Origin: a virus
Taxonomy: Duplodnaviria; Caudoviricetes
IMG/VR virus record: IMGVR_UViG_3300021387_000025
Span: 55,956 to 119,955 of that record
Reading direction: 5' to 3' (one strand)
DNA length: 64,000 bases
Position numbers and translations under genes: made by a program. Of the stretch, positions 16,891 through 28,329 are shown one piece after another; position 1 is the first letter of the stretch, and every line of letters begins with the position of its first letter. The notes under the pieces are model-generated. The model was not told the DNA's origin. It worked only from the letters and a program-made list of their open reading frames with translations, and did no database searches.

Positions 16891-17059
16891 ACCAGGGGCG
16901 CCCGTTCGAACGGGCGTTCGATCCGAAAATCCCAAATACACCCGCCGGGTATTGTGCAATTTGCACAAAAAAGAAATTGAAAGTTTGTGCATTCTGCCTA
17001 TTGCAATCCGGTGCTGATAGTGGTATACTTGACCCATCAAAAGAGAGGAGACCACCACA

Positions 17060-17518
17060 ATGACAAACCCCACCATTTTCGAACACATGATCGACGGATA
17101 CAACACTCACGCGTACACGCACGAGTACATTTTTGGTTTTGAGTACAAGGGCGTTGTCTATATGTCAAAAGCTACAAGCTCGGTTCTGCCCTTTGTCCTT
17201 TGCCTTGACCGCGCAAGCCGTGGCGCTGGATACGCGCTTCGCTTTAAGCCCAACAACGGGCAGAAGCTGGTCCTGATGGCTGGCGCTGAGGTCCTTTGCT
17301 CAAAGGAATATTTCGAATCGCTGGTTCAGTCCTCTATCTACAACGCGGGCGAGATCTTTGAGAAGCTGGTCACTGAAAAGTTCGGACAGACCTGGATCAA
17401 GGACAACGTACCGTTCACCCAGGACGGAGACCTCACGGTTGACGGGATCGCCTACCAGATCAAGTTCAACAAAGCTACCTTCATCAACGAAAAGCAGCTT
17501 GCAAGGCTCGAGGGCTGA
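17060..17518 (+). CDS. Hypothetical protein, PD-(D/E)XK nuclease-like; paralog of 20346-20804
   Basis: GEIFE..DGD..YQIK pattern; own promoter and RBS. Confidence 0.7.
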   Translation: MTNPTIFEHMIDGYNTHAYTHEYIFGFEYKGVVYMSKATSSVLPFVLCLDRASRGAGYALRFKPNNGQKLVLMAGAEVLCSKEYFESLVQSSIYNAGEIFEKLVTEKFGQTWIKDNVPFTQDGDLTVDGIAYQIKFNKATFINEKQLARLEG

Positions 17519-17610
17519 GCCTTGCACCCGCTGCCCGGGCCGATAAAAAAGGCTTGACAAACACAAGCTGGTATGATATAATAAAGCTATAAAGAAAAGG
17601 AGATAAAACA

Positions 17611-17787
17611 ATGAAGTTTTTATTTGTCGGTTATATAGCTCTGATTCTGGTGGTTTTCTTCTTCAGTATTATTCATCAGGATGATGTAAATAAGAATGGA
17701 TCTCGTAAATTCAACTGGCGCTTTGTAATTGTCCTGATTATGTTCATTGTTTCGCCAGTAGTTGCCAAGCTTTGCGGTCTGATGTGA
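17611..17787 (+). CDS. Small membrane protein
   Basis: 58 aa MKFLFVGYIALILVVFFF..., AAGGAG RBS, own promoter. Confidence 0.65.
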   Translation: MKFLFVGYIALILVVFFFSIIHQDDVNKNGSRKFNWRFVIVLIMFIVSPVVAKLCGLM

Positions 17788-17898
17788 TCGCAAAGTTGGC
17801 CGGGCGGCCGCTGCCGGAGAAAAAAAGATTAAAAAGCACTTGACAAACCGGAGAACATCTGTTATAATAGACTTATCAAAAGAGAGGAGAACACAACA

Positions 17899-18063
17899 AT
17901 GACAAAGGAAGAAATGCTTACACTGGTAATTAGAAGATTCGGATTTGAACATCAGTATACAATCGACTTTGCAGAGTCAATCGAATGGTTAGGACTGGAA
18001 GAGTCCAGAACGCTTCTCGAAGCGGTTCTGACACTCCCACTGGAAGAGGACGAAGAGGACTGA
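17899..18063 (+). CDS. Small acidic hypothetical protein
   Basis: 54 aa MTKEEMLTLVIRRFGFEH...; promoter, RBS and terminator present. Confidence 0.7.
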   Translation: MTKEEMLTLVIRRFGFEHQYTIDFAESIEWLGLEESRTLLEAVLTLPLEEDEED

Positions 18064-18241
18064 AGTCCTCTTCTCTTTGGGCGCGGAGTTAGTCATGACT
18101 AACCACTGCCCGGGCGATGGCGGAGTTAGTCATGACTAACTACGCAGAGTCCCGCTGCCGGTATAAAAGATTAAAAAGGGACTTGACAAACGCGCGATAG
18201 TATGATATAATAAGACTATCAAAAGAAAGGAAGAATTAAAG

Positions 18242-18460
18242 ATGTATAATGTAGATCTGGCTATGTGCAATGGTATGGATACAGTTATAACTCATGTAGA
18301 ACATATTCCGTTCTATTCGAGATGGGCGGCGCGCAAATATTCGCGCGAAGTTATCAAATGCATTGATGTCTATCATATAACAATTATGGACATGGAAACT
18401 GGTGAAATCGTTTTGGAATTAAATAATGACGGTTCGATTGAATGGGACTCGGAGGGTTAA
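18242..18460 (+). CDS. Hypothetical protein
   Basis: Track ORF with promoter, RBS and terminator. Confidence 0.7.
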   Translation: MYNVDLAMCNGMDTVITHVEHIPFYSRWAARKYSREVIKCIDVYHITIMDMETGEIVLELNNDGSIEWDSEG

Positions 18461-18587
18461 ACCCTCCGATTCTTTGCCCGGGCGTTGAGTTAGTCACGAC
18501 TAATTCAAAACTTTTCCGAAAAAACTATTGACAAAATTCTATTCTTATGTTATACTAAAGTCAGAAAAAGAGAAAGGAATCCGAAAA

Positions 18588-19025
18588 ATGAGAATTTGTT
18601 TTGATATGGATGGAACGATCGCCGATCTTTACGGAGTTGAAGGATGGTTGGAAAATCTCATTGAAGAAAATACAAGGCCTTACGAAGAAGCAAAAGTTTT
18701 ACTAAATATGCAGGCACTTGCAAGAGTTCTGAATAATCTCCAGAAAAAGGGATATGAAATCGGAATTATCTCGTGGCTTTCCAAAAATGGTTCTGAAAAA
18801 TATAACGAAAAAGTAAAACTTGCAAAAATCGAATGGTTGAAAAATCACTTAAAAAGTGTTAGATTCGACTTTCTGGAAATTGTCAAATATGGAACAGATA
18901 AAAATCTGGTTTGTACTGGAAAATCTGATATTTTATTTGATGATGAAATCGGAAACCGTGAAAACTGGAAAGGCATTTCCTATAATGTAGAAAATATCAT
19001 TGAAGTTTTAAGAAGATTGAAATAA
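18588..19025 (+). CDS. HAD-superfamily 5'(3')-nucleotidase-like protein
   Basis: FDMDGTIADL motif I and ILFDDE motif IV; ATG at 18588 after the RBS. Confidence 0.8.
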   Translation: MRICFDMDGTIADLYGVEGWLENLIEENTRPYEEAKVLLNMQALARVLNNLQKKGYEIGIISWLSKNGSEKYNEKVKLAKIEWLKNHLKSVRFDFLEIVKYGTDKNLVCTGKSDILFDDEIGNRENWKGISYNVENIIEVLRRLK

Positions 19026-19160
19026 TCCTCTTTTTTCTCGCGAAAACGGCGCCCGGGCGCAATCGAACACACGTACGAACAAAATTTTTTTTAAAAATAC
19101 TTGACAAACCGGAAAATGTATGCTATAATTAAACCATCAAAAGAAAGGAAGATAACAAAC

Positions 19161-26260: not shown

Positions 26261-26467
26261 ATGAGTGATAAAAATAACAACAGTGTAAAATCTGGTATCG
26301 GTTTCAGCGGTTTGCTTACAATTGCTTTTGTTGTATTAAAACTATGTGGTGTAATCACTTGGTCTTGGTTGTGGGTACTTTCCCCGTTGTGGATTTCAAC
26401 GGCGATTGTTCTACTGATTGTGATTATGATTTTGATTATTGTCGCTGTGAATTCAGAAAGTACTTGA
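26261..26467 (+). CDS. Small membrane protein
   Basis: GIGFSGLLTIAFVVLKLCGVITWSWLWVLSPLWI, a recurrent phage membrane family. Confidence 0.75.
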   Translation: MSDKNNNSVKSGIGFSGLLTIAFVVLKLCGVITWSWLWVLSPLWISTAIVLLIVIMILIIVAVNSEST

Positions 26468-26519
26468 CAAATCAGACTTAATGTGCTATAATAAAACTAT
26501 CAGAAGAAATGAAAATGAC

Positions 26520-26654
26520 ATGGACGAACACGATAAAAAAGAAATAGAAAAACTTAAAAGTTTTAAAAAATGGTATCTTTGGTTTTTGTCAGCTTCAGAA
26601 GAAGAAAAAAAAGAATATTTAAGAAACAGATGGAAAGCAGAAGAAAGGAAATAA
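26520..26654 (+). CDS. Small hypothetical protein
   Basis: 44 aa ORF after promoter at 26464; weak RBS. Confidence 0.4.
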   Translation: MDEHDKKEIEKLKSFKKWYLWFLSASEEEKKEYLRNRWKAEERK

Positions 26655-26814
26655 AAATTATAATGATGAAAAAGAGGAGTAATCCTCTTTTTGCCCGGGC
26701 CGCGGTTAGTGGAGACTAACTAAAAAAATAAAAAATTTTTTTCAAAACCACTTGACAAATCGGTTCTTTTATGGTATAATCTCTATTGTAAGTTAAAGAA
26801 AGGAACACACTACC

Positions 26815-27456
26815 ATGAATCATCTGATTGTACTTGACACTGAAACCACAAACTCCATCGAAGAACCCCTTGCATATGACATTGGTTGGGCCGTCGTAAC
26901 CGAAGAGGGTAAAGTTCTCAAAACTGAAAGCTACGCTGTGGCTGAAATTTTCCTTGACAAGGAGCTGATGCAGGTAGCATATTTTGCGGAGAAGATCCCG
27001 CAATATTGGGAAGAGATCAAAAACGGTAACCGCAAGCTGGCGCGTCTGTCAACGATTTTCAAATCTCTTTACGCTGATACTCGCGCCTATGATGTGAAAG
27101 AAATCTATGCACACAACGCGCGTTTTGATGACCTCAGCCTCAAGCTTACTCAGCGCTTTATTAGCGGTTCGAAATATCGTTACTTCCTCCCCTATGGCGT
27201 GAAGATGTGCGACACCTTGAAAATGTCAAGAGAAGCCTTCGGCAAAGACCCTGAATATAAAGCCTTCTGTGATGAAAACAATTACAAGACGCCGAGAGGT
27301 CAGCGCAAAATGACCGCAGAAGTTCTATATAGGTTCATCAGTGGACAGAATGACTTTGAAGAGGTTCACAAGGGGCTTGATGATGTATTGATCGAAAAAG
27401 AAATTTTAATCGAGTGCAGACGGCGCGGTGTGGTTGATGGGTCACTCTTCGAGTGA
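26815..27456 (+). CDS. DEDDh 3'-5' exonuclease (DnaQ-like)
   Basis: LDTETT, AHNARFD and H.GLDD motifs. Confidence 0.85.
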   Translation: MNHLIVLDTETTNSIEEPLAYDIGWAVVTEEGKVLKTESYAVAEIFLDKELMQVAYFAEKIPQYWEEIKNGNRKLARLSTIFKSLYADTRAYDVKEIYAHNARFDDLSLKLTQRFISGSKYRYFLPYGVKMCDTLKMSREAFGKDPEYKAFCDENNYKTPRGQRKMTAEVLYRFISGQNDFEEVHKGLDDVLIEKEILIECRRRGVVDGSLFE

Positions 27457-27737
27457 CCCGAAAAACGGCGCCCGGGCGCCCATAAGAAAATCTTATAGAA
27501 AAAGTGCTTGACTTTTTCAAGATTCTGTGGTATTATATATATTGTCAAGAGGAGAGACGACCATCGCAAGAAATCTTGTCGGGAACCCTAACACGGCACG
27601 TCCTATGACCGCCGCAGAAGGTGAGGCGTAGGGAGAGAGGACTCAAAAAATTTTTTCAAAAACTTTTGAAAAACCCCTTGACAAACCTCTGAAAATGTGA
27701 TATAATAGACCTATCAAAAGAAAGGAAGGTACATAAA

Positions 27738-28109
27738 ATGGCAGTATCTCGTAAAACTCTTCGTGACAATCTCCGCACCGCTTATCTCGATCGTGTGATC
27801 GCACTCTTCACCGCTGACGGTGAGGAAATCCTGCGGACGGGTTCCAATGAAATCGCCCTCCCCTGCGTGGACGCTGAGGGCAATGATGAGTTCGTAGTCG
27901 TAACGCTCAAGGTGCCGACTGGCGAGCGTGGCGGAGATCCGTATGACGGCTACGGCGAGGCCGAGGCCTACGCTATGAAGGTAGCAGAAAAGGCCGAGAA
28001 GGCCAAGGAAGCGGCGGCGAAGAAGGCCGCCAAGATTGCCAAGGACGAGGCTGACCGCAAGGCAAAGGCCGAAGCCAAGGCGAGAGCCAAGACGGAAAAG
28101 GGAGAGTGA
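27738..28109 (+). CDS. Hypothetical protein with Lys/Ala-rich tail (paralog of 25791)
   Basis: Shared core; promoter, RBS and terminator. Confidence 0.75.
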   Translation: MAVSRKTLRDNLRTAYLDRVIALFTADGEEILRTGSNEIALPCVDAEGNDEFVVVTLKVPTGERGGDPYDGYGEAEAYAMKVAEKAEKAKEAAAKKAAKIAKDEADRKAKAEAKARAKTEKGE

Positions 28110-28126
28110 AAACTCTCCTGCGTCTG

Positions 28127-28153
28127 AAAGGGGTTAATACCCCTTTCTTTTTC
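28127..28153 (+). terminator. Intrinsic terminator closing the + strand array
   Basis: GAAAGGGGT/ACCCCTTTC hairpin plus T-tract. Confidence 0.7.
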
Positions 28154-28329
28154 TTCTACAGTTAGTTGTGACTAACTTTGCCCGGGCATCGTCTACCCGG
28201 GCGCGCATCCCTAACCTTCCATTATAACACAACTTTGAATTTTTGTCAAGTCTTTTTTCAAAAAAAATTTTCCCTTCTATCTCCCAGCTCACAGCGTCAT
28301 CCTTGCACACCCATTATCGACCGGGCCGT

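Follow-up and report, generated by a model that had tools for sequence, protein, structure and literature searches.

Large phages keep fast-evolving host-takeover and anti-defence genes in arrays of mini-genes with strong promoters. In the Bacillus phage SPO1, the host-takeover module lies in the terminal redundancy and comprises about two dozen small early genes, mostly of unknown function, which have strong sigma-A early promoters, strong ribosome-binding sites and terminators, and are transcribed by the unmodified host RNA polymerase; we know of no conserved GC palindrome at its junctions. Early promoters can also be controlled from upstream sites, as in phage phi29, where the p4 sites upstream of promoters A2b, A2c and A3 consist of an inverted repeat upstream of the -35 hexamer in bent, A/T-rich DNA, from which the small dimeric phage protein p4 turns the early promoters off through contact with RNA polymerase on one helical face. 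The closest published analogue of the locus considered here is the PeSL cassette of the T4-type phages phi1 and RB49, a dense intergenic module in which a Shine-Dalgarno site and a stem-loop terminator accompany a consensus host-sigma promoter that is preceded by AT-rich DNA (Arbiol et al. 2010, PMC2839356). Between PeSL modules lie the small ORFans of a plastic early region, whose genes are reshuffled by inter-module recombination; the stem-loop is found in one of five arrangements, inside the promoter or adjacent to it, and no separate invariant palindrome is part of the modules (PMC2839356). Here we describe an 11-kb array of such small genes in a 64,000-nt stretch of phage DNA from the IMG/VR record IMGVR_UViG_3300021387_000025 (“the window”), in which a short, exactly conserved GC-only palindrome, the octamer GCCCGGGC, marks the junctions between units.

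The window makes up the latter half of a phage genome that is complete at 119,955 bp, has a 107-bp terminal repeat indicative of a circular assembly, and encodes a replisome of its own (DnaE/PolC-like polymerase, topoisomerase II, DnaB and NrdD). The array (Table 1) lies on the strand opposite to the blocks that flank it, a feature already pointed out in a first-pass annotation of this DNA and borne out by the flip in GC skew and by the map of open reading frames (ORFs). The promoter scan finds 32 promoters with at most two mismatches to TTGACA-17-TATAAT, in addition to the first promoter of the array, and most of these have a TG-extended -10 element and upstream A/T tracts. The 25 small ORFs have strong Shine-Dalgarno sites, the unit leader being ATCAAAAGAAAGGA, and the array genes require no recoding. 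A megablast search against a phage collection gave no match to the array, and searching the literature for the octamer yielded nothing but primer noise.

The octamer occurs 19 times in the window, at the positions that the first-pass annotation had listed and nowhere else in it (shuffled sequences lead one to expect 0.20 copies, with a maximum of 2). The genome-wide count gives the same picture: GCCCGGGC is absent outside of the array in the complete genome, and all 22 copies of the shorter word CCGGGC lie in the array, with 0 in the remaining 108 kb. Every copy is intergenic, as had been claimed. With 19 exact copies and only 3–4 one-off variants, the octamer is at least as well conserved as the -35 and -10 hexamers. 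The earlier description of the units as promoter, leader, one small gene or RNA, and hairpin also stands, except that the octamer does not join all of them: it is present only at hairpin-terminated junctions, and the ~33 promoters are grouped in only ~22 such super-units. A solid hairpin is found at 21 of the 21 junctions with an octamer or variant, and among the 11 other promoters only at P20113. The octamer starts 0–4 nt past the 3′ foot of the hairpin in all cases (19/19). The hairpins have energies of -17 to -26 kcal/mol, and several have no U tract (those before the octamers at 21305, 21776, 22926 and 27470). Two further words, GGCGCGCC and GCGGCCGC, are over-represented in this 36% GC genome, with 12 copies each (e.g., G000:C1 3346, 25702 and 23032). 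These were considered as punctuation and rejected, as every copy examined is part of a coding sequence (runs of Gly-Ala-Pro and Ala-Ala); their abundance appears to reflect GC-rich codon choice for Ala, Gly and Pro, and not signals.

The arrangement is widespread. Among the matches listed for IMG/VR contigs of 60–240 kb, the octamer followed after 8–38 nt by a perfect promoter is found in more than 116 stretches, and we estimate that a handful of octamer-promoter matches would arise by chance; a control of the same composition, GGGCGCCC, gives 17 stretches, some of which are by-products of octamers with a GGGC flank. In a motif-independent set of loci fetched through a protein (1.32 Mb), GCCCGGGC is the commonest GC-only 8-mer, with 314 copies versus 4–74 for other GC-only palindromes. 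(GCGCGCGC is another GC-only octamer, different from GCCCGGGC.) In some lineages, GCCCGGGC is replaced by a symmetric variant, GGCCGGCC, which is changed at positions 2 and 7 and is found in 69 IMG/VR stretches. Each genome has one type: locus L241 contains 19 copies of GGCCGGCC and 0 of GCCCGGGC, and locus L235 contains 18 of GCCCGGGC and 0 of GGCCGGCC. Hybrids of the two are rare, and one of them is at position 17798 of the window. A scan of bacterial genomes gives mostly single, chance-level matches, with arrays in only two contigs of metagenome-assembled genomes (Acutalibacteraceae bins), which are a weak hint at best as to the host.

The bases next to the octamer are also constrained, and in a mirror-symmetric way. 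Among 344 oriented sites, A is present at only 3–8% at positions -1 and -2, and T at only 3–6% at positions +8 and +9, despite the asymmetry of the wider context, which is T-rich upstream and A-rich downstream. The flanks of GGCCGGCC are likewise mirrored (CK...MG, with C at -2 and G at +9). Judged from these base frequencies, GCCCGGGC is the core of a putative dyad-symmetric, double-stranded DNA site of ~12 bp. The distance from the octamer to the next -35 hexamer is quantised at ~10.5 bp, with peaks at 21, 31–32, 41–42, 51 and 62 nt. For 197 non-identical junctions from the protein-fetched loci, the power at 10.5 bp is 7.8, a value that is reached in 1 of 2000 jittered nulls. GGCCGGCC has the same phase (peaks at 22, 32–33 and 43–44 nt), and here the null reaches the observed power in 0 of 5000 trials.

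Complete relatives identified by their polymerase (54–71% identity) contain 0 octamers (G004, G005 and G007) or 1 octamer (G008). G004, G007 and G008 keep early promoter arrays, and in these the octamer slot holds other palindromes of 19–21 bp, namely TGGGACGT-N3-ACGTCCCA, TTAGACGT-N3-ACGTCTAA and TTAGATGT-N3-ACATCTAA, respectively. The substitutes are exclusive to the arrays (12/12, 20/20 and 28/28 genome-wide copies) and have fixed or phased spacings (11 nt in 10/10; 8–9 nt in 10/13; 8/9, 18/19, 28/30 and 39 nt), a geometry that resembles that of operators. The sole octamer of G008 is at its only junction without a local operator, beside a homologue of the gene at 24620 of the window, and this junction looks like an imported cassette.

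The symmetric variant, the dyad-symmetric flanks, the phasing with respect to the -35 hexamer and the replacement by operators in relatives together favour one of the roles proposed in the first-pass annotation, that of a protein-loading site. LexA-type boxes and the GTTAGY-N4-RCTAAC palindrome, operators of known types that lie next to the octamer, count in favour as well. We give about even chances to the reading that a dimeric protein recognises the octamer and acts on the early promoters, with the site secondarily a recombination seam. The array would then be the early (host-takeover) region of the phage, in which ~33 near-consensus host sigma-A promoters with A/T-rich upstream (UP) elements would each drive a short RNA, a single small gene or a pair of them, grouped in ~22 units that end in a 3′ hairpin. 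A dimeric, sequence-specific protein, from phage or host, would recognise the octamer site right after the hairpin, in register with the next -35 hexamer. From this upstream face it would act on the downstream early promoter, most plausibly in the shut-off or insulation of early transcription. The junctions are divergent apart from this one exactly conserved GC-rich island, and as such the octamer would also be a preferred crossover for the exchange of cassettes through general recombination.

Several points weigh against a protein site. The octamer is present at only about half of the array promoters, and is therefore dispensable for promoter function. The phasing could originate from phased A-tract spacer modules instead of a bound protein, and for GCCCGGGC it is moderate after aggressive collapse of related junctions (n = 98), when the null reaches the observed power in 46 of 5000 trials. 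In addition, no octamer reader was found among the winged helix-turn-helix family, a family of 152-residue proteins or ParB proteins. The winged helix-turn-helix family was rejected because its recognition helix does not co-vary with octamer density and it has no octamer-exclusive clade, and because it is present in octamer-free phages and absent from the octamer-rich genome G029. The 152-residue family, to which the first gene of the array belongs, is the sole real gene singled out by a whole-genome contrast of the octamer-positive G000, G001, G009, G027 and G029 with G004–G008, and in a panel of thirty records octamers are present in 13 of 13 protein-positive records and the protein in 0 of 7 octamer-free ones. 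The family is nevertheless absent, even by profile search, from the octamer-rich genomes G010, G014 and G018 (51, 27 and 24 octamers, respectively), and 27 of the 76 loci that encode it have no octamer within 10 kb. With octamer-rich genomes that lack the protein and octamer-free arrays that contain it, we rejected it as a universal reader; its distribution suggests an association with the octamer. A phage-encoded reader of the ParB/Noc type, considered on the basis of a shared CCCGGG core, was likewise rejected, as a search of the genome for ParB_N (PF02195) gives nothing at E ≤ 1.

The breakpoints of the array bear on whether the junction element functions in recombination. The first-pass annotation described a recombination-shuffled early-gene platform of the SPO1 host-takeover or T4 PeSL kind, and this is supported, as the core cassettes of relatives differ in order and number. 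Its suggestion that the octamer marks the crossover holds in part: block ends are enriched there in related phages, but the nearest strains break elsewhere. These near-identical strains are contigs of public runs from other samples that share parts of the array at 97–99% identity. Their well-supported blocks (17974–18231 | 18586–19152 | 19752–20179, and ...–26154 | 26795–...) end in the leader just 5′ of the ATG (18231, 18586, 19152 and 26795), in a -35 hexamer (19752) or at a stop codon (26154), and none ends at the octamers at 18108, 18476, 19051, 26175 and 26693; joints with sides of less than 40 nt lie in repeated promoters, are unreliable and were ignored. For the distant comparison, we used 106 internal block ends from pairs of other phages at ≥90% identity. 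Here, 11 ends are at an octamer edge (0.8 expected, ~14-fold), 11 are in the UP region (4.9 expected), 8 in the core promoter (6.3 expected) and 11 in the leader/ATG region (5.7 expected). Since alignment ends snap to conserved islands, the octamer value is somewhat inflated, but not 14-fold. The positions of the block ends suggest that the octamer is one of two preferred seams, with the repeated promoter/leader as the other, in a PeSL-like manner. The genome encodes only general recombination functions, for example a Sak4-like annealase.

It is possible, though rather unlikely in our judgement, that recombination is the function of the octamer and not a secondary effect, with the site serving as the target of an endonuclease or nickase, or as a GC-rich microhomology, that places breaks or crossovers precisely at cassette borders and so lets co-infecting phages swap entire units. 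This would account for the block ends at octamer edges and for the single octamer of G008 in its apparently imported junction, and a palindromic site fits a dimeric nuclease and permits inversions. The candidate enzyme would be the 152-residue protein with its E...D...QxK pattern, the only real gene present in 4/4 octamer-positive and 0/5 octamer-free whole genomes. Its family is unnamed, comprises ~1,900 clusters at 90% identity and has no Pfam domain. In the predicted structure (pLDDT 96, pTM 0.89), E100, D123 and Q132-x-K134 lie on a helix-strand-strand layout that resembles the PD-(D/E)XK core, and the nearest named cluster in an atlas is a type II restriction enzyme family (ThaI; score 0.88). 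Against this, the ThaI hidden Markov model does not match the protein, no match was found among Pfam, PHROG, PADLOC or PDB sequences, and Foldseek and a wide structural search gave no credible PDB neighbour (best Z of 3.1). The gaps in the distribution of the family described above count against the enzyme as well, the strains closest to the window break in the leader or -35 hexamer and not at octamers, the snapping of BLAST block ends inflates the enrichment, and recombination alone does not explain the helical phasing to the -35 hexamer.

A more specific form of the recombination hypothesis is that GCCCGGGC and GGCCGGCC are sites at which a small, restriction-enzyme-like phage dimer, provided in many lineages by the 152-residue family, nicks or cuts the cassette borders in a programmed manner; we consider this improbable. 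If true, it would be a self-contained “cut-here” system by which co-infecting phages exchange, invert and capture early anti-host genes, and a form of cassette shuffling distinct from integrons and from plain homologous recombination.

The octamer might instead be a structural cis element with no dedicated reader, that is, a GC clamp past the hairpin that aids termination or pausing, or limits supercoil-driven melting before the UP element. The constant position just after a hairpin is in line with this, as is the finding that, of 329 sites from other phages, 52% directly adjoin a perfect hairpin, and octamers are confined to junctions that end in a hairpin, among them the final one (28180), which no plus-strand promoter follows. 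We nonetheless think that it has only a small chance of being correct. A generic GC clamp needs no exact palindrome, yet GCCCGGGC far outnumbers other GC-only palindromes in the protein-fetched loci (314 versus 4–74); the flanks are symmetric and each genome has a single type; several of the abutting hairpins lack a U tract; and G004, G007 and G008 manage without the octamer.

At the RNA level, GCCCGGGC, being self-complementary, could pair in read-through transcripts or mark them for processing, and a contig from an RNA library (26680–26846) does span the octamer at 26693. This is highly improbable, as symmetric flanks in an asymmetric context indicate duplex DNA, the phasing to the -35 hexamer has no RNA rationale, and the RNA-library contigs also cover untranscribed promoter DNA, so that DNA carry-over is likely; the RNA run (X20), which consists of contigs only, is uninformative as to transcript ends and octamer transcription. 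Finally, the “integron-like” platform of the first-pass annotation, in which a dedicated site-specific recombinase would insert and excise cassettes at the octamer as at attC/attI, is essentially excluded despite the one-gene cassettes, the invariant junction word and the reshuffled order in relatives, because its defining features are lacking: tyrosine and serine recombinases and Y1 transposases (PF00589, PF00239 and PF01797) are not matched anywhere in the complete genome at E ≤ 1, each cassette is equipped with a promoter, the nearest-strain breakpoints are off the site, and the octamer is an 8-bp perfect palindrome and not a 60–140-nt imperfect attC hairpin.

The features of the array and its borders are listed in Table 1.

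Table 1. Positions of the junction elements, promoters and genes of the array and its borders, numbered from the first base of the window.
Feature	Position	Strand	Remarks
Divergent promoter driving late/structural block	16812	-	Promoter scan
Left control region	16898..17029	+	Sequence read, promoter scan, LexA-type box scan
Split-octamer palindrome GCGCCCGTTCGAACGGGCGT	16898–16917		In left control region; fits LexA-type box too
Palindrome TTGTGCAATTTGCACAA	16952–16968		At first promoter of array
First array promoter, TTGCAA-17-TATACT	17001–17029	+	Promoter scan
Early-gene array	17001..28187	+	~33 sigma-A-type promoters, 25 small ORFs, ~7 ORF-less units, ~22 hairpin-terminated junctions
Exact GCCCGGGC (n = 19), starts	17533, 18108, 18476, 19051, 20224, 20824, 21305, 21776, 22457, 22926, 23405, 23704, 24525, 24948, 25641, 26175, 26693, 27470, 28180		
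Junction variant GGCCGGGC	17798..17805		Hybrid of GCCC and GGCC half-sites
One-off variant GCCCGGAC	19733–19740		
One-off variant ACCCGGGC	28195–28202		
GTTAGY-N4-RCTAAC (n = 11)	18088, 18125, 18489, 20204, 20236, 22470, 23715, 24506, 25623, 26705, 28161		Either side of octamer
LexA (Cheo)-type boxes	19064 (1 mismatch), 20836, 23386, 24957		Span 19064..24970; box at 23386 doubles as hairpin of preceding gene
152-aa orphan, first array gene	17060..17518	+	Invariant E100, D123, Q132-x-K134; nuclease-like pattern
152-aa orphan paralogue	20346–20804		70% identical to copy at 17060
HAD/NT5C-like 5′-nucleotidase, 145 aa	18588..19025	+	PF06941, E = 5.8e-6, above curated cut-off
HAD/NT5C-like nucleotidase paralogue	21868–22305		
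Winged helix-turn-helix protein, 126 aa	24070..24450	+	
Winged helix-turn-helix paralogue, 115 aa	25229–25576		
Winged helix-turn-helix paralogue, 121 aa	28611–28976	-	Outside array
122-aa protein	25791..26159	+	Lys/Ala/Glu-rich C-terminal tail
Paralogue of 122-aa protein, 123 aa	27738–28109		
DEDDh 3′-5′ exonuclease-like protein, 213 aa	26815..27456	+	PADLOC DEDDh model, E = 2.6e-6
ORF-less promoter units	P20113, P20873, P21018, P23753, P23867, P24995, P27508	+	Span 20113..27677
Right boundary	28221..28547	-	Two perfect TTGACA-17-TATAAT promoters, -35 starts 28249 and 28547
TTGAAA-17-TATAAT promoters	29099, 29706, 31387, 40468, 40912, 49695, 59031, 60917	-	More sites in first half of genome

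Many of the octamers are accompanied by a second palindrome. The “operator palindrome” mentioned in the first-pass annotation is real and corresponds to GTTAGY-N4-RCTAAC, with 11 matches versus 0.32 expected, always within 6 nt of an octamer. LexA-type boxes (CGAAC-N4-GTTCG; 7 matches versus 0.93 expected) occupy the same slot at other junctions. One accessory palindrome, GGTTAGCATAGACTAAC (23715–23730), recurs almost unchanged in the octamer-free G007, where it is located at the first junction (G007:C1 ~15300–15400, reverse strand); this suggests that lineages with different main junction palindromes probably share its reader. The TTGTGCAA-N-TTGCACAA palindrome at the first promoter of the array (16952–16968) also recurs at many promoters of related octamer-free arrays (L225, L095 and L127), and appears to be a further, lineage-variable type of operator.

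Most of the cassette genes are matched by neither Pfam nor PHROG. In the array, four gene families have two copies each (the 152-residue orphan, the HAD/NT5C-like, the winged helix-turn-helix and the 122-residue proteins), and the DEDDh exonuclease-like gene is the most widespread cassette, with copies in 65 other loci. Among the ORF-less units, four (20873–21017, 23753–23866, 24995–25124 and 27508–27677) share the transcript start TGTCAAG(R)GGAGAGA and a promoter variant, TTGAC(A/T)TTTTCG ... TAT(A/T)(A/C)T. The start motif is also found in the octamer-free relatives G007, G008 and L127, and the four units may be short RNAs or leader elements. The folding of the short ORF-less units is not significant, and no part of the array matches an Rfam family, even with a cut-off as permissive as E ≤ 1. 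The 252-nt ORF-less region after P21018 (21053–21304) folds better than shuffled sequences (z = -2.2), and an identical 137-nt contig from a sheep-gut RNA library covers 21073–21209; we consider this region a candidate phage non-coding RNA.

At the right boundary, the two minus-strand promoters face the 3′ end of the array (antisense), and a cluster of CAGCTGCA-type repeats is found beside them at 28330–28450. Outside of the array there is a second class of promoter, TTGAAA-17-TATAAT followed by a conserved start region, ATTTATAGAAAATGA(A/G)AGA, which probably represents a different temporal class. The genes that flank the array were considered as lineage-specific regulators and rejected, as they are core late genes or a winged helix-turn-helix paralogue. 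Elsewhere in the window, the late ORFs (e.g., 810–1940 and 15445–16812) are fragmented, and become long ORFs in our own translation when TAG is read as Gln. The phage carries 29 tRNA genes. One of them, at 63285–63372 on the minus strand, is an 88-nt amber suppressor (anticodon CTA) whose extra arm is long, and a full-length ROOL RNA (Rfam RF03087, 257.6 bits) adjoins the tRNA cluster at 48638–49232 (minus strand).

A junction palindrome that is homogeneous within genomes, helically phased and present in more than 100 contigs of uncultured rumen and gut phages points to an undescribed factor that would control early transcription, or set its boundaries, in phages of anaerobic Firmicutes. The octamer is a precise handle by which this factor could be found, cassettes could be marked off automatically in metagenomes and the reshuffling of gene sets could be studied, and the switch from GCCCGGGC to GGCCGGCC, together with the other operators of sister phages, constitutes a natural specificity series by which the reader might be identified.

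Of the known systems, the ParB/Noc/KorB-type loading sites differ in that this phage has no ParB_N domain. Integrons resemble the array in their single-gene cassettes separated by a recurring palindromic element, but the array has no integrase, nearly every cassette has its own consensus promoter in place of a common Pc, and the site is a short perfect palindrome with duplex-type flanks, whereas attC is a folded single strand. The mechanism proposed for the octamer would be of the same kind as that of phi29 p4; the p4 sites, however, are few and lie in one control region, as opposed to ~20 over the array, their sequence is different, and no p4 homologue was identified here. SPO1 has a comparable cluster of small early genes with strong sigma-A promoters, although its module has no sequence relationship to the array and is placed in the terminal redundancy. 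The PeSL cassettes are the most similar: in both cases a repeated intergenic module with a consensus promoter and upstream A/T tracts (32 within two mismatches in the array) flanks small ORFans, gene content and order vary among relatives, and breakpoints fall in the promoter/leader and junction modules. The array differs from PeSL in its hosts, which are of the Gram-positive type (sigma-A, strong GGAGG sites), and in its phages, which are unrelated, TAG-recoded rumen and gut phages. It also differs in having a distinct 8-bp dyad (~12 bp with flanks) between the hairpin and the UP element, which is helically phased, has lineage variants (GGCCGGCC) and is replaced by other palindromes in relatives. 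The array is thus an ordinary phage early/host-takeover cassette region of the PeSL/SPO1 type with an unexplained, strongly conserved junction element, and what is new here is the ~12-bp dyad, its abutment to the hairpin and phasing with the -35 hexamer, the GGCCGGCC lineages, and the phased palindromes of the octamer-free relatives.

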